64,000 nucleotides of DNA, from assembly GCA_000004985.1 (NCBI GenBank), contig GG738848.1, one strand, 5' to 3'. The translations under genes and the position numbers were made by a program. Of this stretch, positions 1-50,583 are shown one piece after another. Numbering within the stretch: position 1 is the stretch's first letter; each line of letters begins with the position of its first letter. The notes under the pieces were generated by a model, which ran no database searches, was not told the DNA's origin, and was given only the letters and a program-made list of their open reading frames with translations. This DNA is from Naegleria gruberi (taxonomy: Eukaryota).

Positions 1-957
1 ATATTTACATCCAACTCTTGAACTTTGTTCAAAAATTCTATATGCCATTTGGTTATACTCATCAAGTTGTTGAAGGAACTCATCTGCCAACCGATCTTCA
101 GGTATTGGAACTGTCGGTGCAGATGGAGGTTTTGTTCTCATTTCTTTTGGTAGTTCCTTTTGAGAAACAGCTCTCTTATCCAAACATTGAGGAATGTGGA
201 ATGTTAGAGAGTCTACATTCAGATACTCCCTTCCACACAAGTGGCAACAATAAGCAATAGGCTTTCCATTAATATCCCTCATAGGAGCCTTCTTTTGTGA
301 AGACGATGATCTACTCTGACTCACTGCAGTTTTTGAGACAGAATCTCTCACTGGAAGGTATTTATCAATATTTTGAGATGCTATTGTAGCTGATTTGTTC
401 GATGAATTTGATCCTATTGAACCTGAAGAACTTTCTCTCACTAGTTGAGATTTTGAATTTGAGGGAGAGGTTTTTGGAGGAGTGTATTGAACCTGACGAG
501 GAGGTGAGCAGGATCGGGGTGGTTGTATTGTTGATGATTGTTGTTGTTTTTTGGGTGATGAAGCAGAAACTGAGGGCTTGTTATTTTGTTGTTGTTGAGG
601 TTGTTGCATTGTTTGTTGATGATGTTTTGGACTATTATCAGATGGATTGCATCTCAGAAAATGTTCTCCCAATTCACTAGCCTTGAATAATTTCAAACAT
701 GACGGGCATGGATTTAGACTCTCCTGACAATACAACAATTTCGCATAAGTATTATACTTCTCAATGCTAGCCTTATCTTTAGAAGAGGAAGGCATCATCA
801 TGGAAGGCAAACCCCGAGGAGGATACATCCTCTGCAATTCGGGAATCAACTTCTGCTGTTGAGCATGCCAATTATTAGAGCATTGAAACATGTGGTCCTT
901 CAAATTTCCAAACTCCTCATTCTCTCCACAATAATAACAAATAAGCTTTGCAGACAT
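1..957 (-). CDS. C2HC-type zinc-finger protein (ZC2HC1/FAM164-like); start codon is in the window and the gene continues past the window start
   Basis: The reverse strand reads as an open frame from an ATG (complement of 955-957) to position 1 with no stop. I checked the first ~120 codons by hand (MSAKLICYYCGENEEFGNLKDHMFQCSNNWHAQQQ...). There are three C-x2-C...H-x4-5-C motifs (CYYCGEN..HMFQC; CPSCLKLF..HFLRC; CHLCGREY..HIPQC), typical of zf-C2HC_2, plus poly-Q and S-rich linkers. The ORF track does not list it because it has no stop in the window. Confidence 0.6.
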   Translation of the reverse strand, partial: MSAKLICYYCGENEEFGNLKDHMFQCSNNWHAQQQKLIPELQRMYPPRGLPSMMMPSSSKDKASIEKYNTYAKLLYCQESLNPCPSCLKLFKASELGEHFLRCNPSDNSPKHHQQTMQQPQQQQNNKPSVSASSPKKQQQSSTIQPPRSCSPPRQVQYTPPKTSPSNSKSQLVRESSSGSIGSNSSNKSATIASQNIDKYLPVRDSVSKTAVSQSRSSSSQKKAPMRDINGKPIAYCCHLCGREYLNVDSLTFHIPQCLDKRAVSQKELPKEMRTKPPSAPTVPIPEDRLADEFLQQLDEYNQMAYRIFEQSSRVGCKY

Positions 958-1772
958 TTTTTAAAATCAATGTTCATACAAAATTGTAGTTGCACCCTTA
1001 TTGAATTCTTCTAGCAACAAACCATTACAATTTCGAAAGTATTGATACAATTTAACATAAATTGATTTTGTAATAAACCAACAAACTTTCATCAACATAA
1101 TTCAAAGTTGATGCTCAAGGTACTAATATTTCATCAACAAACCAAACAAAGCAAAGTCCTCAAATGTTTAAGTTGGTTCACGAATCAATGAATTAATTAC
1201 CCATGGCAAATGACCAGATTCAGACATTTCCTAACCATTTAAACAAATTATAATCCTATTCAACTCATACCTATTTGTATCTGAATATTCTTCAATATTA
1301 TATATTCTCTTAATTGTTTAACAAAATTTACAATATTGTTAATCAGTGCCATCCATTTCCTATTCAATTCTTCAATAGCAATAAAAACGTGTTGGCTTCC
1401 CCATTAGAAGTAAGTTTTCACCTTCAGTTCATGTAGAAAATTCCTTCCTTCTTCATGCCCCTTCATAGAATTGTGCTTAGCAAAAGGTACTTTGACAAAC
1501 TAATCAATTGTCTTCCGAACATGCGGTCTGCTCATAAAAGACGTTGTGGGATACCATAACATAGAATAAAAGAGGCAGCTGTCCAAAGTGTATTTTGTCA
1601 CGCCACAAGCGACAAGAGGTGAAGAATAATTTATTCGCTAAAAAACGTCAACAAGTGTAACCCTCCTTTCTTACCTGTACAACAATTAGAACAGTTATTC
1701 GAAAGGTTTACATCATCTTTTGAATACATTGTTGCATTTTCACAATTAGAATAATTTAAACTTTTCATCACA

Positions 1773-4488
1773 ATGGTCAATTTCACTACCTTTGTCAAAT
1801 CAAAAAGGAAGAGAAAAAAGGATATAACTTTTCAAGATATTCAGGAAAATTTTGATCTTCCTATCAAGGAAGCAGCCGATGCTTTACAAATTTCGTTAAC
1901 TCAACTCAAGAGAATTTGTAGAGAGAATGATATCCCTCGTTGGCCATACAGAAAGGTGAGTTTTTGCTTGTATATCACACATAACTGACAGTTATTATTA
2001 TTGTTTATCATTCCTTGTTCAACTGTACATGTATTCAATGTTACGACGATCCGCCTGTACTATTATTACATACGAAAATATTCTTAAATTGCTGTTGAAT
2101 GTTATCTCCTTCTCATTTGTTACCCAATTTGATAATTAATATTCTCTTTTTGATGGTCAAAAAACTCTTTGGATATGAAACGACCATTTGACTGTTCTTG
2201 TTGGACAAACAACGAATTCATAACATTTTAATGATGAAATGTTGTTCGACTTGTATTATACTTTTTCTATTCGAATCAAATAGTTACAAGCTCTACAAAA
2301 CAAATTACAAGATCTTCAAGATAGTTTAGCACAAGCAGATGAATTAACCAAGCAAAGAACACAAAGCAAAATAGATTCCATACATGAGGAGATTAAATTC
2401 ATTCGTGCCTATCCTAAAACAATTATTGAAAGTGGTGGCAATGGAGGAAAGAGAAATTCCATAACAAAATCCAAACGTTGGTCACTTCCATCAATGATGT
2501 CAGGAGATTCTATGAGTTCATGTGGAAGTGGAGCATCAACGAGTAACATTTTGGATCAAACCTTTGGTGGAGCTAATTCTGCTGCCAACAGACGTTCACA
2601 AAATGAAGAGGAATTCTTTAAAGATCTACAACAACGTTTGAGTAAACAATATGGTGGAATGCCTGCTGGATTAATGGGTCATGAAGAAGAGGAAGATATA
2701 GATGAAGATGAGATAATTGGTGATGCTGATGAGGATGAAGATGCTGAAAATAATAAGAAACAATCAGCAGCCAAGACGAATAATAGAAATAAGAGATTTT
2801 CAATGCCATCACTCTCTCATAATAACAGTAATAATAGTAGCAGTAGTAATATTTTGAATAGTTTAACTCCAAAGAGTAGTACTGCTAATCATTCTACAAG
2901 TGCTTTCACTACAGTCAATTCGAACACTAATCATCACCAACTTCATCATCATCAACAACAACAGTGGAATACATCCAATAATAATAATAATCAATTTAGT
3001 TATCCAACTCCATCAACAACAACGAATAATGCCACTAATAATATTATTCATCATCATCCAATTGGAAACCAATATCCACATCACCACCACCACCATCCTC
3101 AACCTCATCATGTTGGTTCTCCTCCACAACATATGACTGTTCAACATCAACACCATTCCTATGTTACACATCCACAACAAACAACTTCTAATTCGGGGCA
3201 TTCTCACGCATATCCTCCAATGGAGTCGCAAGGTCACTATGGAGTTGTTTCATCCCATCATCAGCTTCACCATTCTCATCATCATCAACACCAACCACAA
3301 CAACAACCTATCTATCATAATGTAATAGGTGGCAATAGTGGTGGTGGTCAATTGTATAATCATAATAATGTAAATGTGCCAACTCAATCAGTTTCTCCTC
3401 CACAACATTACCCAACCAATTATCAAGCCAATCAACATCAACCTCTAAATAATGTTGGCCACCTGCCTAATTCGTCAACTCAAAATTATCAACAACAGGG
3501 AATGCAAGGCCACCAAGTGATAAATCCTCAGCCAAACCAAAATAACATTGTTAGTCAACCTGTTGGTTTCGGTCATCCACAGCATGTTACGACAAGTAGT
3601 GCCCCACCTCAAAACGATCCAAATAATCAGGCAGCAATTCATAGCTTACATCACCAACCTTTGAATTCTCCCTCAAGTAGCTCAACTACAAGGGAAAGCG
3701 GTTTACCTTCAAGACAGCACGATTTCTTTTCCTCTGGATTTTCACATCACCATACTCCATTCAGTCATTCGAATAGACCTAGATCACTCAATATTAGCAC
3801 TCCATCTTCGGACTCTTATGGTTTTACTAAGTACTTACATCAAAATGGAAATTACCTGCCATCACTTGCTCAGGTTTTGAAGGAGAATGAATCTGACAGA
3901 ATGCAAGACTCACCTATAGCAGTGAATGAGCCATCACCCTTCTCAACGAGACCAACATTACCACCTGTAAATCGATCATTTGATCAACCACCAGATCTTC
4001 CAAATGATTCTCAGAGAAGTGATGCATCCAAGATTTCCCAAGCTTTAAGTATTCTTAAGAAGAAGAATACCAATGCATCCTCAACAAGCGCCTTACCACA
4101 ATCAAGTAGTGCAGGTAATTTAGAGCAGATACCAAGCAGTTCTTTCGATAATTTCCAATATTCAGGATATGGTGGAAATAATACTCATAGAGAAAATCTT
4201 CACTATCTCAGAAAGGGTGTCCACTCAACCGAGTTTGAGTATCCACCATTACAACAATATTATCAACAGTACCCAGATCAATTCATGGGTTCACAGCCAT
4301 TAACATCAACAACCCATTTCACACAACAGCAAATAGATCCAAATTCGCCAACTTCGAAAGGTATCGATGATAAGAACTCTAAATCAACAAATGGTGGTAA
4401 GGAAAACTCATCATCGGGTGGCAGCAAACTGTCCTTCCTAGAGAATTTATTCAGAAAGAAAATTCCATTCATAAGAAAGAGAAAGTAA
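1773..4488 (+). CDS. RWP-RK domain transcription factor with a long His/Gln/Asn/Ser-rich low-complexity C-terminal region; two exons, 1773..1955 and 2284..4488
   Basis: Exon 1 encodes ...FDLPIKEAADALQISLTQLKRICRENDIPRWPYRK and ends at the donor aag|gtgagt (1956). The acceptor ...aatcaaatag| at 2283 continues in frame as LQALQNKLQDLQDSLAQ..., completing the RWP-RK consensus (RWPxRK-L..L...I). It joins in phase with the 664-aa ORF 2494..4488, which carries HHHHHH, QQQQ and NNNNN tracts. The 328-nt intron is the longest in the window. Confidence 0.7.
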
Positions 4489-20239: not shown

Positions 20240-20312
20240 GCTGGCGTAGCTCAGTCGGTAGAGCGTTGGTCTAATAAGCCATTGGTCGCCGGTTCGATCC
20301 CGTCCGTCAGCA
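20240..20312 (+). tRNA. tRNA-Ile (anticodon AAT)
   Basis: The 73-nt cloverleaf was folded by hand. The acceptor is GCTGGCG/CGTCAGC with one G-U pair, the D stem is GCTC/GAGC, the anticodon loop is CTAATAA (AAT), and the T loop is GGTTCGATCC. There is one C-U mismatch in the T stem (50-64). No CCA is encoded and a T4 run lies 3 nt downstream. Confidence 0.8.
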
Positions 20313-32708: not shown

Positions 32709-32782
32709 TACCGACAATGGGGCTCGAACCCACGACCCCAGGATTAGAAGTCCTGTGCTCTATCCAACTGAGCTATGACGGC
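32709..32782 (-). tRNA. tRNA-Arg (anticodon TCT)
   Basis: The reverse complement folds as a 74-nt cloverleaf. The acceptor is GCCGTCA/TGTCGGT with one U-U mismatch and one G-U pair, the D loop is AGTTGGATA, the anticodon loop is CTTCTAA (TCT), and the T loop is GGGTTCGAGCC. It has a discriminator A, no CCA, and an oligo-T downstream on that strand. Confidence 0.75.
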
Positions 32783-39268: not shown

Positions 39269-41309
39269 TTACATTGAATACTGGAAATAGGTAGCTCCAT
39301 GTTTGTGGTAAAGTTCTCGTTTGTATGGATCTCCCAAAATGGAGAAGGCATAGTTGATTTGTTTGAATCTTTCAATAATTTCTTCTGTGGTCCATTCCTC
39401 ATCGTTTGTTTTGGTTTGTGTTGTAGATGATTCTTCTTGTTCTGGTTCGCCTGAGATTTCAGATGATGAGAGAACAGATTTTCTTTTACTGGAATTGAAC
39501 AAATCAGGATGGTAAATCATAGCAAGCTGAGACAGTTAGGTTGAGTGAATTTAAAATACTTGCCTTCTTATATTGAGATCGAATTTCTTCTTGAGTATAC
39601 AAGCTAAACTTTTGGGCATCAAGTTCTAAAAGAGAGTATAAATCACAACCCTTACTGATTTCAATGGCAAGGGCAGTATTACCATCTGATGGGTTAGCAC
39701 AATACTTCCAGGCATTCGAGTAAATTTTTTGTAATGGCTTGTTGGAAATATACTTGTTGTGAACGTGGACAGCAAACTTCTTATGGTGCTCCTTATGTAA
39801 TAAAGGTTTGTAGTATGTCTCTGTGCTAGCTCCAAATGCAGCAAATAAAGAAAAGAAAAATCCATAAATTAATGAGCTATAGATGTCAATAAATGGGAAT
39901 AATGAGGAAATAATACCCCAACCAGAGTAAACTCCTGTAAAGTATGATAAAAATAATTTAGGGAAACTGTATGGTACATATCCTGTCACATAGCTTGTAT
40001 CAATGCCGTTTGTAAATGAGTGGAACGTATGTTCACCATGAGACAAGTTTCTAACCTTATGTCTAATATGGAATGGACTGAAAAGTTTAAGGGTATGTGG
40101 AAAATTGAGAACATCCTGTTTGACATAGACAGGAATATAAATCATTTCCTTTTTGTGTAATTTGAAATCAGTTTTTTCAATATTAAAATTAGAAAGTTGA
40201 ATAGTTGGAGAATCGAATAAAGTTCGTTCTTCTGTGGAGGTTATAGTTTTGGAGATAATTTGTTTCATGCTTTCTTGGAGTTTGTGAGGTACTGTATTAT
40301 CCAAAGCCAATGACCAAGATGTTTCCCAATCGACAGTATAATAATCGACAGAATAATCTCTTTTAAATGATGATCTCTTGAACCATGATTTGATATCATC
40401 CCACAAATTTTGATACCATTTCAATTTGTAATTAATTTTTGAAATATAGGTAGGGTCTGTGAGGTATTTCTTATCTATTTTATATGCAATTCTATTGATA
40501 TACCTTCTCTCAAAAGAAGTTGATGCATATATTGTGGCATAATCATCAACCATCGTTTCAGTACCCAATAATTTAGTTGGCTCGACATGTTCGTCCAATT
40601 TGATATGATCTATAATACAGCTAATAGTTATTTCTGAGCTTGTAAGAGTTTCAATTTTGAAGGTATGGTCTTGAATTTGAAATTGATTTTTCAGAATTGT
40701 TTTCATAATATCAGCAAGTTCTTTCAATCTGCTTTCATCTTCCAATTTTAACTCTTTCAAAATTTTCTTTTGATTCTTTTGCTTTTGATGTACATCTCTT
40801 TGTGAAAAATCCTCAGGATTAGCGGTCAATATGAGAGGATCCTTTTCAGGAATAACTTCCTCAATTTCTCCGAACAAATTGGTCAATAATTCTCTTTGTT
40901 TCCTTGGATCGATAGTAATCCTTGTTTTTACTTTATATCCACAAGCATCACCATATTGAAAAACCCACAATGGAACATAAACTTGTTCAGGATACACATC
41001 TGGTTTGTACCAACTTCTTGGTCCATAGAATCTATTTTTCTGATGAGCATACTCCACAAAAGCATCACTAGCATCCTCAGGTGATGCTCTAAATTCACTA
41101 GCTACTTTCAACTTGATTTCTCCAAGATCTTGCTGCTCATCTCGGGTGATCGTCTTTGTTCGGAATGAAAAATTCCTTGTTGCACTATTTTCCACAATTT
41201 TATAATTCTTCTTATTTGATGATAGGCTTGATGATAACAGCAGTAGTGATGTTATCTTTTTCCTAGTACTATTACCAGCAGGGACAACAAGCCTTTTAAG
41301 TGATGGCAT
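39269..41309 (-). CDS. Polytopic membrane protein with a C-terminal J (DnaJ) domain; two exons joined by a 37-nt GC-AG intron, complement(39269..39526, 39564..41309)
   Basis: The large ORF ends ...DLYSLLELDAQKFSLYTQEEIRSQYKK, which is J-domain helix I-II. The donor aag|gcaagt and acceptor tctcag| continue as LAMIYHPDLF..., giving ...QYKKLAMIYHPD (consensus AYRKLALKYHPD). An acidic insertion follows, then ...FKQINYAFSILGDPYKRELYHKHG (helix III-IV). Hydrophobic segments (GWGIISSLFPFIDIYSSLIYGFFFSLFAAFG) precede the J domain. Confidence 0.6.
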
Positions 41310-41401: not shown

Positions 41402-44022
41402 TTATTGATCTTCTAAGGAGATATCACACTTTGATTGGCACAATTCAATCATGTTTGCTGCCAATTTATCATTACGTCCATTAAGCAATTGGTGATCGAA
41501 ATATTGCTGGAAGAGCAGTAGTGCATTCGAATAGTCAGATTCAAAGTACATGAGACATGCATTATTGTAGGTTTTCCACTTTTGTTTCTTTTCTTGTTCT
41601 TCCAATTCGTACATCCATTCTAAAAGAGAGATAATCAATTTTCAAATAATTCAATTGAACTACTTACCATCTGCATTTCCTTGAGTGGAATCTCCAATTT
41701 CAAAGATCTTTTCCATTTTGGAATGGTCCTCTATTCCATTAATGTGAAGGCTTTCTGAATATTCCACAACTGATGAGTAATTTTGATCTTCAATCATTTT
41801 CACATATCCAACAAATCTTGTGTGATATTGAGATTCAATTGCTTTTTGAATGGAATGGGAAGAAACTAATTTCAAATCGAATTCTCTTGCCCTTCTCAAC
41901 ATGGTTTCCAAATTACTTTTGGCATTTGAAATAAGCGTGTAATTCTTACTATCATTTGTTCCAACATTACCACAAACACATTCTTGAAGACAGATGGCAG
42001 CTCTAATTTCCAAATCATCAATCAAATGCTTGTCAATTTTCTTTGCAAATCTGTTATTAGAAGAAAGCCATTTCTTCTCCTTAATTGACGAAAGTTTTTC
42101 CAGAATCATTCTTGTTGCTACCACTGCCTTTTCCTGATGTTTACTCTGGGCAGAAGTTGTATTGAATGAAATTGTAATGGAATCATTCTCAAATGAACCA
42201 AGTAATCCTCCATGTGTTCTGCATATAGTTGTGATTTGATCGAAGAAATCAGTCAACATATGAATTGTATCATGTGGAGAATGAATTGAGTTCAATACTT
42301 TTGAAAAATTATCTATCATGATGTTACTAATGGAAACTTTCTTCTTTTCTAAGAATAGAGAGAACATATCAGCCTTGATACTTGAATATTTGGAACCTTT
42401 TGAAGAATTCTCTGTATGATTAGTTCTAAATGATTCCTTCACTTGAGAATTGCTTTTGAATGAGCTCGAAATTGATTGTAACTCATTTGGCTTAGTTCCA
42501 TTCTCTTCAGAGGAGCCCATACCCTTCTGATCCAATTGAGCAAGCAAATGAGGTGGAAGGAAAGCTCTATACATTTTGATAGTGTTGGTCATTTCTAAAA
42601 AGTGTTTTTGTAAAGTTCTAACTTCTGAAAAAGTACTTGGTTGAACATTGACATTTTCCAAGTCCATGTGAGAAACTGCTTCGAATTGTTCGATGAGATT
42701 GTTGAATGGTTTTACAATTTTTATGGAAACGAGAACAGAGAGTGAGATAGAGACTGAAACAATAATTAAGGCGCCCAAAAGTGACGAAACAATTCCAATA
42801 ATTACTGATCCCATATAGTTCCACTTTGGAATACTCAGAACAAACATCCAATCAATGTTGGTATTTAGACACAATCTATATATCGAAACATAATCAGTCA
42901 TGTGGTCAAATGTTTTAGGAGTGTTGCAGGCAATGTTCGATTTAATATCTCCTTTAGCAAAATCAACAATTACATTGTAGATACTATTGATTCTTGTGTC
43001 CTCAATATTGGAAGCCGTCTTTCTGGCAACGTTTCCATTATCATCTAGAACGGCAGTTTTGGTATCCCTGTTATCAACTTTATCAATGGTCAACTTGGTG
43101 TTCAATAAAAAAAATACTTACTAGCAACTAGATAATTTTGGGCAACTTCAAATATAAAACTCTTGGACCCATCGATGATTTTCGTCTTATTAATCAAGAA
43201 ATCAGATGCACTAGCCACTGTAATATCAAATCCTTGAAAATAATCAAATTTAATGGTATCCTGAGCTGATCTAGCAGTGAAAGAGAAACAATAAACTAAT
43301 GAATAGAAGGTATCCAAATTTTCAGTGGTAACATCCACAAATCCTCTTGTAAAGGTCAGTTTTTCAGGATGTTCATTACAAGTCTCTATAATATAGTCAA
43401 CATCTAATGGGTCTTGAATTATATCTGGAACATTTCCTCTCTGACATGTTTCATACTTTTCTAAATCTGGATCACATTTGTAAAATATCTGATGGTCTTG
43501 TGTACAATTGAGAATTGAAACATCTGTTCCTGAATTGTAAATTCCAAGATTAGTTCCAGAATTCTTTCCAACATAAATTGTTACAACAAGGTCAGAGTTT
43601 GCTCTCTGTTCTGATAAATAGGTCTGATAGACAATCTTTTCTATCTGATCATAGTTTTCAAAATCCAACAGGAATCTAATTTGAGCTCGCATGGTGTCAG
43701 CCCCATGAGTAACATCAAGCAAAATCTTCTTGACCGAATTGACTATTTCATTAAACTCTGAATCTCTTTCAGTTAAACTCAAATTGAAATTAGAAGGAAG
43801 TAAAGAGCTCATCCAAATAGCCGATAGAAAAAGAACACTAATCAATACTATTACTGAAATTAGAATAATAATACAGAACTTGATTGAAGCGAATGGTTTT
43901 CTTGATTCATCGAAATTTGTTTTTTCTAAAACTTTTTCAGAGTGAGAAGCTGAAGAAAAAACAGCACTTTCTTCATCAACATCATTGGGATGAATTGCAT
44001 TTGAGGACTTGTTGACCACCAT
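41402..44022 (-). CDS. Receptor-type protein with N-terminal TM, extracellular domain, second TM and a cytoplasmic class-III nucleotidyl-cyclase-homology domain (degenerate); three exons
   Basis: ATG at the complement of 44020-44022. The first TM is IIILISVIVLISVLFLSAIWM. A Cys-containing ectodomain of about 250 aa follows, then a 43-nt intron (a|gtaagt ... gataaag|), then the second TM (VIIGIVSSLLGALIIVSVSISLSVLV). The cyclase-homology region (..TDFFDQITTICRTHGGLLGSFENDSITISFN ... ICLQECVCGNVGTNDSKNYTLISNAKSNLETMLRRA..) has the metal-binding F-x-D-I-x-G-F-T replaced by IMIDNFSK. A last 39-nt intron joins ...NAD-EWMYELEEQ.... Confidence 0.5.
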
Positions 44023-44401: not shown

Positions 44402-45037
44402 TTAAACATGTTGTTGTTGTTGAATAATTGGATAATGAACAATTGGAGTTTGGCTATACACAACTGGAACTTGAGCCATAAATTGAGATGGCATTTCTTC
44501 TTCCTCTCTTAATGGTTGATGAGATTCTTTCTTTTGTAATGAAATAGAATAACCCTTCTTCTTCAAAATGCAAAATGTAATAGAAGCTCCACAAATTAAA
44601 CAAGTAGAACAAGTCAAGACAATTCCTCCAATTATTGCCAAAATCATTCCAAATGGAAATCCACGTTCATTTTGACGAGATTCTCTTTCATTGTTATCCA
44701 AATTGGAATTGTTATCATCTTGAGCAGATTCAGTGTTTGATTGTTGGGATTCGTCTTGTTGTTTCTTAGGTGGCTTGGAAGAATGTTGAGGTTTTGGTCT
44801 TGGTGGCAATTGACCAGATTGTTGAGGAGTAGGTCTTGGTGGCATATGAGAATCTTGTGGCTTTGGAGGCATTCCACCAGAAGGCATTGGTCTAGGTGGC
44901 ATTGATCCATTTGGTCTTGGAGGTCTTTGCTTATTCGAATCTTGTTGAGTTTCTTGAGCGAAAGCAAATGTCAAACATAGCAAGAATGTAACAATGAAGA
45001 GAATTAATTGTTTTGAGCACATTTTCATATTAAACAT
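44402..45037 (-). CDS. Type-I membrane protein with signal peptide, proline-rich MPPRPxP repeats, one TM and a short cytoplasmic tail
   Basis: MFNMKMCSKQLILFIVTFLLCLTFAFAQ is the signal peptide. Five PPRP/PPKP repeats follow, then the TM ILAIIGGIVLTCSTCLICGASITFCIL, then a Q-rich tail. Confidence 0.45.
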   Translation of the reverse strand: MFNMKMCSKQLILFIVTFLLCLTFAFAQETQQDSNKQRPPRPNGSMPPRPMPSGGMPPKPQDSHMPPRPTPQQSGQLPPRPKPQHSSKPPKKQQDESQQSNTESAQDDNNSNLDNNERESRQNERGFPFGMILAIIGGIVLTCSTCLICGASITFCILKKKGYSISLQKKESHQPLREEEEMPSQFMAQVPVVYSQTPIVHYPIIQQQQHV

Positions 45038-49464: not shown

Positions 49465-49498
49465 GATGTTGACATTTTGTCTCTTAATCAACATTTAG

Positions 49499-50583
49499 AA
49501 TTACTGCAATGTACTAGTCTAGATTTCTATTATGACGAAGATGGTAATCATGTTTCTGATTTTATCATTGATTCAATTAGAGATAGGTTTTTTATAATCA
49601 TTCGTGTATTGGGCATTGTGCTATTTAGTTTTAATTCGTTTACAATAATTCTGGACAAGTTAAGGTTTTGGGAAAATAGAGATTTCTGTATGGAGGCAGT
49701 CAATAATGATGGAACATTACTTCGTTATGTTTCCAGCTATCTTAAGAATGATAGAGAAATTGTTTCCACAGCTGTCAATAATACTGCTTATGCACTTACA
49801 TATGCACCAACACAGTTTAAAGAGGACAAGGAAATGATTTTGCAAGCTGTGAAACAAGGTGGAGATATTTTACATTTGGTACCTACAGAGTTACGGAACG
49901 ATAGAGAAATAGTTGAGCAAGCAGTAAAGAAAAATGGAATGGCCATAAAGAATGTATCAGAAGAGTTGAGGAAAGATAGGAATACTGTTTTAGAGGCTGT
50001 CAGGCAAAGTGGTTGGGCGTTTCAAGAGGTTCCAGAAGAATTCAAGAAGGACAGAGAGATTGTTTTTGAGGCAGTTAAGCAAACACCACAAATGCTCGAA
50101 TTTGCTGATACTGGACTGGTTAATGATAGAGAGTTCATCTTACAGATTATCAAGAACAATGAAAATATCTTGGAATATGTTTCAGAATCATTTAGGAATG
50201 ATAGAGAGTTCATCCTTCAAGCTGTGAAAGTTAGAGGTTTTGTGCTTTCTCATATTCCAGAGGAATTGAAGAAAGACAGAGAAATTACATTGGAAGCAGT
50301 TAAAGAAAATGGCCTTGCTATTCAAGCAGCACACGAAGACTTTACAAATGATAGAGAAATTGTTTTGGAAGCCATCAAACAAGATGCCAAAGCTTGGAAA
50401 CAATTATTAGAAGAATGTAGAGACAGTGCCGAAATGCAAATAGAATTATTTGGTTTGGCTCTCTACTCCGCTTCACAAGAATTGAGAAATGATCCTGAAA
50501 TTTCCCAATTTGCATCCCAAGAATATGGAGAAGAAATACTAGAACTAGGCCAGAGTTATCTCAATCCTCCCCCAATGGAATAA
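49499..50583 (+). CDS. DUF4116 repeat array (about six ~50-aa repeats, xxLRNDREIVLEAVKQNG.AL..V.EE); probably continuous with the Skp1-like exons upstream
   Basis: The repeats have the DUF4116 signature (LKNDREIVSTAVNN..; LRNDREIVEQAVKKNGMAIKNVSEELRKDRNTVLEAVRQSGWAFQEVPEEFKKDREIVFEAVKQ...). The ORF-track start at 49477 is TTG. The first in-frame ATG is about 70 codons in, inside the repeat region. Confidence 0.6.

Follow-up and report, generated by a model that had tools for sequence, protein, structure and literature searches.

Whether a receptor built like a bacterial cyclase still makes cyclic nucleotides is the question raised by one gene in a 64,000-nucleotide stretch of Naegleria gruberi contig GG738848.1 (assembly GCA_000004985.1), an AT-rich sequence (about 33% GC) hereafter called the window. 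From N- to C-terminus, the encoded protein has a first transmembrane helix (TM1), an ectodomain of 317 amino acids (aa) and a second transmembrane helix (TM2); on the cytosolic side, a HAMP-like hairpin and a disordered Ser-rich linker lead to a class III cyclase-homology domain (CHD), behind which lies a TPR-like tail (Table 1). A preliminary description of the locus had outlined the order membrane helix, ectodomain, membrane helix and cyclase-like fold, which hydropathy, an AlphaFold model and Foldseek searches bore out; the HAMP-like segment, the 59-aa disordered linker and the TPR-like C-terminal tail were absent from that outline. The N-terminus of the receptor is cytosolic. The analyses presented here make it probable that the gene encodes a ligand-gated pseudo-cyclase receptor, in which a sensor type that goes back to class IIIb adenylyl cyclases of bacterial style would be joined to a CHD that is now a pseudo-enzyme. 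A pseudo-cyclase signalling receptor had already been suspected at first reading, and the suspicion is supported, with sequence and structure models both pointing to inactivity.

Homology of the CHD to class III cyclases is established. On the single window sequence, Pfam Guanylate_cyc (PF00211, the profile used to test membership) scored 15 bits against a gathering cut-off of 21.9 (E = 0.019), and membership at the Pfam threshold was not reached. A single-sequence phmmer search matched P. aeruginosa CyaB at E = 3e-6, and a profile made from 39 family sequences matched the bacterial cyclases Cya2, CyaB and CyaC with E-values between 1.5e-8 and 1.5e-4 (1.5e-8 for Cya2 and 3.4e-8 for CyaB). For residues 420-770 of the window protein, AlphaFold gave a model with a per-residue confidence (pLDDT) above 90 across the CHD. 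When this model was submitted to Foldseek, the top matches were exclusively class III cyclases, led by CyaB (E = 4e-12, TM-score 0.79-0.80). Since phmmer, the family profile and the AlphaFold model compared with Foldseek all returned class III cyclases, the cyclase homology proposed in the preliminary description withstood the searches that might have overturned it.

In order to locate the catalytic positions, we built a hidden Markov model (HMM) of the family CHD and aligned to it the retrieved members and CyaB (128 CHD segments aligned). The residues are given below in the order metal-binding Asp1, substrate-specifying Lys, metal-binding Asp2, substrate-specifying Thr, transition-state Asn and transition-state Arg. 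The alignment returned D/K/D/T/N/R for the active CyaB and D/K/D/S/N/R for P0112, a canonical relative from Willaertia magna (KAL9648894.1), and this recovery of canonical residues validated the catalytic columns. In the same columns, the window protein read M/S/D/T/N/M. Thus, three of the six catalytic residues were replaced (Asp1, Lys and Arg) and three were kept (Asp2, Thr and Asn). The secondary structure predicted in the model agrees with canonical CHDs: M554 closes beta1, D599 is in the turn between beta2 and beta3, T681 is part of beta5, and alpha4 carries N689 and M693. The metal-binding Asp and the Arg are reportedly required for class III catalysis, according to mutant-complementation work on Rv1625c and the C1/C2 structures of transmembrane adenylyl cyclases (tmAC). 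Judged by its sequence, the CHD is outside the definition of a catalytically competent class III cyclase, because three of the defining residues are missing.

Two motifs had been singled out as degenerate in the preliminary description, and they fared differently. The reading of 'IMIDNFSK' as a degenerate F-x-D-I-x-G-F-T was correct, but the Asp it contains, D556, does not occupy the metal column, where Met554 stands. We considered D556 of 'IMIDNFS' as a candidate metal-binding Asp and rejected it, as three independent alignments put it opposite the variable x of D-I-x-G-F-T; in the active relative P0112 it aligns with the Glu of 'DIENFT'. The second motif, 'VCGNVGTN', had been mistaken for a degenerate G-x-x-x-G. 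It aligned residue for residue with 'TVGNFGAD' of the active CyaB and with 'VVGNIGSE' of Cya2, and it is a normal class IIIb motif whose G-N-x-G is invariant in the family. An intact catalytic set, which would have argued for a genuine cyclase, was not recovered: M554, S595 and M693 stand in the Asp1, Lys and Arg columns, and the corresponding losses extend family-wide.

The extent of the family was determined by two types of search. In a word-indexed search the only matches were Naegleria proteins, with 36-46% identity, and a metagenome fragment that was 98% identical. An exhaustive profile search collected 7,788 proteins at E ≤ 1e-3, of which 134 (50%-identity clusters) reached E ≤ 1e-30. 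Most of the best 150 representatives covered the same architecture, and essentially all the scorable CHDs among them shared the same losses. The named members that we looked up were all from heteroloboseans, namely N. gruberi, N. fowleri, N. lovaniensis, Willaertia magna, Percolomonas cosmopolitus and Pharyngomonas kirbyi, with several paralogues in each Naegleria genome that we consulted; the P. cosmopolitus and P. kirbyi members came from transcriptomes. Column counts were taken from the 55 closest 50%-identity cluster representatives. The Asp1 column held Tyr, His, Leu, Lys, Phe or Val and in no case Asp, the Lys column Ser, Asn or His, and the Arg column Leu, Met or Ile and never Arg. Asp2 was Asp or Glu in only 37 of the 55, with Asn or Gly in another 15. 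Position 597 was acidic in 50/55 and position 598 was Asn in 46/55, so that both were better conserved than Asp2 itself. N606, which takes the place of the Gly of 'FG', was invariant (55/55); H614, Q665 and K/R678 were conserved, the G-N-x-G was invariant and N689 was Asn in 47 representatives. P0112 was the sole match to the family profile with fully canonical catalytic residues; it has the ectodomain and the TPR-like tail common to the family and reached 71.7 bits with Pfam Guanylate_cyc. Sensors appear to have been shuffled onto a related output module.

Several relatives combine a related CHD with other domains. In N. fowleri P0051 (FDP41_004922), a NIT ectodomain precedes the degenerate CHD and its tail. 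Pharyngomonas kirbyi P0152 consists of a bacterial solute-binding-protein domain, the CHD and a C-terminal SAM domain, and its CHD retains Asp1 and Asp2 and is devoid of Lys and Arg. Metagenome protein P0061 carries about 390 aa of N-terminal ankyrin repeats before a degenerate CHD, and metagenome protein P0067 also belongs to this group of relatives. A bacterial origin of the longer ankyrin-containing relatives was rejected for P0061, whose contig holds eukaryotic genes (DHHC, Rpn3 and RWD-Kelch). As annotated, P0112 shows poly-Thr/Asn low complexity where TM2 and the HAMP would be expected, which may be a gene-model problem. Complementation inside the family was also considered and rejected, as no complementary C1-like and C2-like classes were present among the CHDs scored.

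On the extracellular side, the preliminary description had rightly placed a Cys-containing ectodomain between the two membrane helices and had underestimated its size at about 250 aa instead of about 317 aa. Its seven Cys and three N-glycosylation sequons fit an extracellular domain. Six of the seven Cys were conserved in the Cys-bearing paralogues: C183/C193 and C215/C245 were kept in paralogues with a Cys-rich insert, while C351 and C370 were invariant. The ectodomain is predicted to be disulfide-bearing. The structure model of the ectodomain was computed on the sequence of an N. fowleri homologue, with both window pieces included in its alignment (pLDDT 78.8, pTM 0.76). It showed two PAS-like alpha/beta modules stacked behind a long N-terminal helix; with a transmembrane helix on each side, this is the structural arrangement of a double-Cache (dCache) sensor. 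Examination for a Cache or CHASE domain therefore yielded a double-Cache fold in the structure model, and Pfam Cache and dCache profiles gave no match for the window protein at E-values up to 10. MCP-like_PDC_1 was matched, weakly, in two distant relatives only. As modelled, the ectodomain is a dCache by structural definition and falls outside the Pfam profile.

The segment that follows TM2 directly is a helix-connector-helix of about 50 aa, the structural arrangement of a HAMP. The AlphaFold model placed its helices at residues 423-436 and 451-472, and the invariant P424 and E452 fit the HAMP hallmarks of a conserved Pro in AS1 and a Glu opening AS2. At the sequence level no significant HAMP was detected: the family profile matched the NarQ HAMP weakly over its whole length (E = 0.017), Pfam HAMP matched 5 of 24 members with a best E-value of 0.012, and a Pfam scan of the full protein returned none. 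We call this segment HAMP-like. The linker that separates it from the CHD was the least conserved segment of the protein (19% mean pairwise identity), contains 14 Ser in 59 residues and differs in length between paralogues, from about 40 aa to about 90 aa. Such a Ser-rich disordered linker could act as a phosphorylation-regulated tether. At the C-terminus, the homologue alignment revealed ten invariant residues in the tail encoded by exon 3 (W785, Y788, A791, C792, A803, L806, F807, N817, D821 and C831). The tail of relative P0056 matched Fis1_TPR_C weakly and below the cut-off (E = 2.4e-4), and a Pfam scan of the full window protein gave no TPR match for its tail.

Altogether, these observations can be assembled into the following mechanism for a ligand-gated pseudo-cyclase receptor. 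A small extracellular ligand would bind the membrane-distal Cache module and, by the route used in bacterial dCache receptors, TM2 and the HAMP-like unit would carry the signal inward. The active sites of class III cyclases are shared between the two chains of a dimer, of which one provides Asp1 and Asp2 and the other provides Lys, Thr/Asp, Asn and Arg (PMC8815786). The receptor chain supplies neither half complete; therefore, no complete site is predicted either for the homodimer or for a heterodimer with a canonical paralogue. The CHD dimer would then make neither cAMP nor cGMP, and the CHD would serve as a non-catalytic output module. Its pseudo-site (E597, N598, N606, H614, Q665, GNxG, K678 and N689) has probably retained the ability to bind a small ligand, whether a nucleotide or another, and the CHD and the TPR-like tail may pass the signal on through changes of conformation and contacts between proteins. 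A non-catalytic output, which could consist of ligand or nucleotide binding or of protein recruitment, is suggested by the conservation of both the pseudo-site and the tail. At the level of the family, and with slightly less confidence than for the receptor itself, we consider it rather likely that Heterolobosea have a large conserved family of receptor pseudo-cyclases. In these proteins, sensors (dCache, or NIT or solute-binding-protein domains in paralogues) would be coupled to a non-catalytic CHD module that combines a pseudo-active-site (E-N-[D], F-N, H, Q-E, G-N-x-G) with a TPR-like tail.

Several points weigh against this mechanism. The pocket retains Asp2, Thr and Asn, and it has gained a highly conserved acidic residue, Glu597, two residues before Asp2, which could in principle substitute for Asp1. 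The disordered insert of 59 aa between the HAMP-like unit and the CHD obscures how the two would be coupled, and the canonical relative P0112 has a short link at this place. Finally, the models are monomers, and that of the ectodomain represents the 46%-identical N. fowleri homologue rather than the window protein.

Among the alternatives, the one that survives best, though we regard it as unlikely, is that the receptor is a regulatory subunit of a heterodimer, in which the pseudo-CHD pairs with the CHD of an active paralogue and modulates or silences this partner in a ligand-dependent manner, as in tmAC, soluble guanylyl cyclase (sGC) and chytrid NeoR/RGC. Class III cyclases commonly act as heterodimers or pseudo-heterodimers in which one site is degenerate and regulatory (PMC8815786), potential partners abound in Naegleria genomes, which encode at least 81 cyclases (PMC9928731), and the CHD core and the GNxG region are well conserved. 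However, pairing with a canonical partner would leave both composite sites defective, one without Lys and Arg and the other without Asp1. Therefore, the effect on such a partner could only be inhibitory. In addition, none of the CHDs scored in the best 150 representatives brings the missing Arg, with the exception of the canonical P0112.

Somewhat less probable still is an adenylyl or guanylyl cyclase that remains active with relocated residues, for example with Glu597 replacing Asp1 and a nearby basic residue such as K678 replacing Arg. Residue relocation has an analogy in the catalytic Lys of WNK kinases. The conservation of an acidic residue at position 597 above that of Asp2 (50 of the 55 close representatives) would agree with such an enzyme, as would the conservation of K/R678 and N689 in a pocket that is constrained as a whole. 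The mycobacterial cyclases Rv1900c and Rv0386 are also said to remain active after losing the substrate-specifying Lys alone. By contrast, we know of no active class III cyclase, from mutagenesis work, that lacks both the metal-binding Asp and the Arg. The Asp2 column, with Asn or Gly in 15 representatives and Asp or Glu in just 37, is not what would be expected of a working two-metal site, and no conserved basic residue lies near the Arg column, as R695 and R696 of the window protein are not conserved.

Decay of a cyclase gene on its way to becoming a pseudogene, or an error of the gene model, either of which might account for a CHD scoring under the Pfam gathering threshold, is essentially refuted by a frame that stays open over three exons with canonical splice sites, by 27 synonymous versus 12 non-synonymous changes and exclusively intronic indels in the comparison with a close relative, by the same degenerate state in more than 100 diverged clusters from several heterolobosean genera (two of them via transcriptomes) and by an AlphaFold confidence above 90 for the CHD. 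The close relative is the metagenome contig designated L001 (contig k127_565881 of ENA ERZ929261, positions 864..3758), and none of the 12 non-synonymous codon changes fell in the 228 residues of the CHD. Among the seven closest homologues, mean pairwise identity was 43% for the CHD, 40% for the dCache and 61% for the HAMP region, compared with the low value of the linker given above. As these substitution patterns indicate, the gene and the family are under purifying selection, which rules out decay.

The gene model was established by joining three minus-strand open reading frames (ORFs, 44022 to 41402) via two GTAAGT...AG introns, which gave a coding sequence of 2,529 nt and 842 codons with the ATG at 44022 and the TAA stop at 41404..41402. 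Both splice junctions were gap-free when the spliced protein was aligned with six Naegleria homologues, the residues spanning them being 'YLVAIDN' at intron 1 and 'NADEWMYELE' at intron 2. Comparison with L001, which is 98% identical to the window across the whole receptor gene, showed 10-14% divergence in the introns and 0.9-1.9% in the exons, and every indel was intronic. Intron 1 diverged by 13.6% between flanking exons that diverged by 1.4-1.9%, and the acceptor AGs of both introns were kept. ORF joining, the homologue alignment and L001 thus agreed with the position and the three exons given in the preliminary description, which had made each intron 5 nt too short (39 and 43 nt). Given the 98% identity over the gene, the L001 sample contained the source organism or one very closely related to it. 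Prokaryotic gene calling on this contig had broken the receptor gene into three 'genes' at the introns.

Table 1. Features of the receptor gene in the window, with the residues of the encoded protein to which they correspond.
Feature	Position	Strand	Description
Whole gene	41402..44022	minus	Three exons, 842 aa plus stop; junctions backed by homologue alignment and L001 comparison
Exon 1	43122..44022	minus	Residues 1-300 and base 1 of codon 301
Intron 1	43078..43121	minus	44 nt, GTAAGT...AAG, phase 1
Exon 2	41668..43077	minus	Residues 301-770 and base 1 of codon 771
Intron 2	41620..41667	minus	48 nt, GTAAGT...TAG, phase 1
Exon 3 and TAA stop	41402..41619 (coding 41619..41405, stop 41404..41402)	minus	Residues 771-842, conserved helical TPR-like C-terminal tail
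TM1	43810..43878	minus	Residues 49-71; Kyte-Doolittle 19-residue window up to 3.2
Ectodomain	42815..43809 (intron 1 inside)	minus	Residues 72-388; predicted double-Cache sensor, 7 Cys, 3 N-x-S/T sequons
TM2	42722..42814	minus	Residues 389-419; hydropathy
HAMP-like helix-connector-helix and conserved 'YRAFxPxHLLxQL' helix	42530..42721	minus	Residues 420-475, helix to 483
Low-complexity Ser/Lys/Asn-rich linker	42365..42529	minus	Residues 484-538; predicted disordered, pLDDT <50; counted from residue 480, the 59-aa disordered insert spans 42365..42541
Degenerate class IIIb CHD	41681..42364	minus	Residues 539-766; sequence, profile, model and Foldseek
Met554 codon	42317..42319	minus	Metal-binding Asp1 column, lost
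Ser595 codon	42194..42196	minus	Substrate-specifying Lys column (four residues before Asp2), lost
Glu597-Asn598-Asp599	42182..42190	minus	D599, kept metal Asp2; E597 and N598, family signature
Thr681 codon	41936..41938	minus	Kept class IIIb substrate-specifying Thr; 'YTLIS' aligned with CyaB 'YTIIG'
Asn689 codon	41912..41914	minus	Kept transition-state Asn
Met693 codon	41900..41902	minus	Transition-state Arg column (Asn+4), lost

The genes around the receptor gene are ordinary eukaryotic ones (tripeptidyl-peptidase II (TPPII), eRF1, ribophorin I, RasGAP, the arginyl-tRNA transferase ATE1 and a GRIP-domain protein), and these neighbours gave no clue to the function of the receptor. An ORF of 601 aa (39504..41309, minus strand) begins 92 nt downstream of the receptor stop, encodes C-terminal hydrophobic segments and had no Pfam match at E ≤ 0.001; it also follows the receptor gene on L001. 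On the other side, an ORF of 211 aa (44402..45037, minus strand) with no Pfam match combines a signal-like segment at its N-terminus with 'PPRP/PPKP' repeats rich in Pro, one transmembrane helix and a short tail, and resembles a small mucin-like single-pass membrane protein. Elsewhere in the window, a protein of five DUF4116 repeats (E = 7e-98) is encoded at 49477..50583 on the plus strand, and the sole Rfam/ARAGORN matches were tRNA-Ile(AAT) at 20240..20312 (plus strand) and tRNA-Arg(TCT) at 32709..32782 (minus strand).

Sequence, profile searches, structure models and the family-wide pattern support the interpretation of the family as receptor cyclases that became pseudo-enzymes and multiplied in Heterolobosea. 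Its members would form a distinct sub-family of 134 clusters (50% identity, E ≤ 1e-30) that is predicted not to produce cyclic nucleotides and yet is under selection. If this is true, part of the large 'cyclase' repertoire of Naegleria makes no cyclic nucleotides. The analysis further shows that dCache sensors are commoner in heteroloboseans than profile searches indicate. The practical importance is modest at present; the family has members in the pathogen N. fowleri, and their predicted extracellular ligand-binding domain makes them experimentally approachable. In the literature that we searched, there was no description of a degenerate CHD family, nor of receptor pseudo-cyclases in Heterolobosea.

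The closest known systems are bacterial. CyaB (3r5g), Synechocystis Cya2 (2w01) and Spirulina CyaC (1wc1), all class IIIb cyclases, gave the best matches in sequence and fold and share with the receptor the G-N-x-G motif and a Thr in the substrate-specifying column. The wider layout is that of bacterial sensor-TM-HAMP-cyclase receptors, with a sensor between two transmembrane helices, a HAMP-like unit and a single CHD obliged to dimerise. Unlike bacterial class IIIb cyclases, the receptor has Asp1, Lys and Arg replaced and is encoded by a eukaryotic gene with spliceosomal introns. In place of the canonical short helical link into beta1, represented by P0112 ('FVPVKVLENIL...AKLILEPANVTIMFLDIENFT'), the receptor family has a disordered insert of 40-90 aa.

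Within Naegleria, a single Cache-containing protein has been reported, a 'bacterial-type adenylate cyclase' (Upadhyay et al. 2016, PMC4822843). This protein and P0112 are, like the receptor, heterolobosean and combine a Cache-type ectodomain with a class III CHD. P0112 differs from the family in keeping all the catalytic residues, whereas the family is degenerate. As the dCache of the family is invisible to Pfam, Naegleria Cache receptors outnumber the single one reported. The osmosensing adenylyl cyclase G (ACG) of Dictyostelium and the trypanosomatid receptor adenylyl cyclases are likewise protist receptor cyclases with a single CHD and an extracellular sensor. They are active enzymes with intact catalytic residues and with other ectodomains, of the CHASE type in ACG and resembling periplasmic binding proteins in trypanosomes. 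ACG is mentioned in the pangenome paper that lists the Naegleria repertoire of at least 81 cyclases, and genome papers count the family proteins simply as cyclases (PMC9928731). Naegleria genomes are often cited for this very large repertoire, whose proteins are taken to be sensors that produce cAMP or cGMP.

The pseudo-sites of other class III proteins, such as the forskolin site of tmAC C1/C2 and those of sGC and chytrid NeoR/RGC, resemble the CHD described here in that a non-catalytic surface is kept for regulation (PMC8815786). Those dimers retain one complete site, unlike the receptor, which is predicted to be non-catalytic as a whole. A purely conceptual analogue, of unrelated fold, is found in receptor pseudokinases and in the kinase-homology domain of receptor guanylyl cyclases. 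In these proteins, a ligand-binding receptor carries a conserved dead enzyme-like domain in the cytosol that signals by conformation or scaffolding. If the interpretation proposed here is true, the heterolobosean family would be the cyclase counterpart of these receptor pseudokinases.

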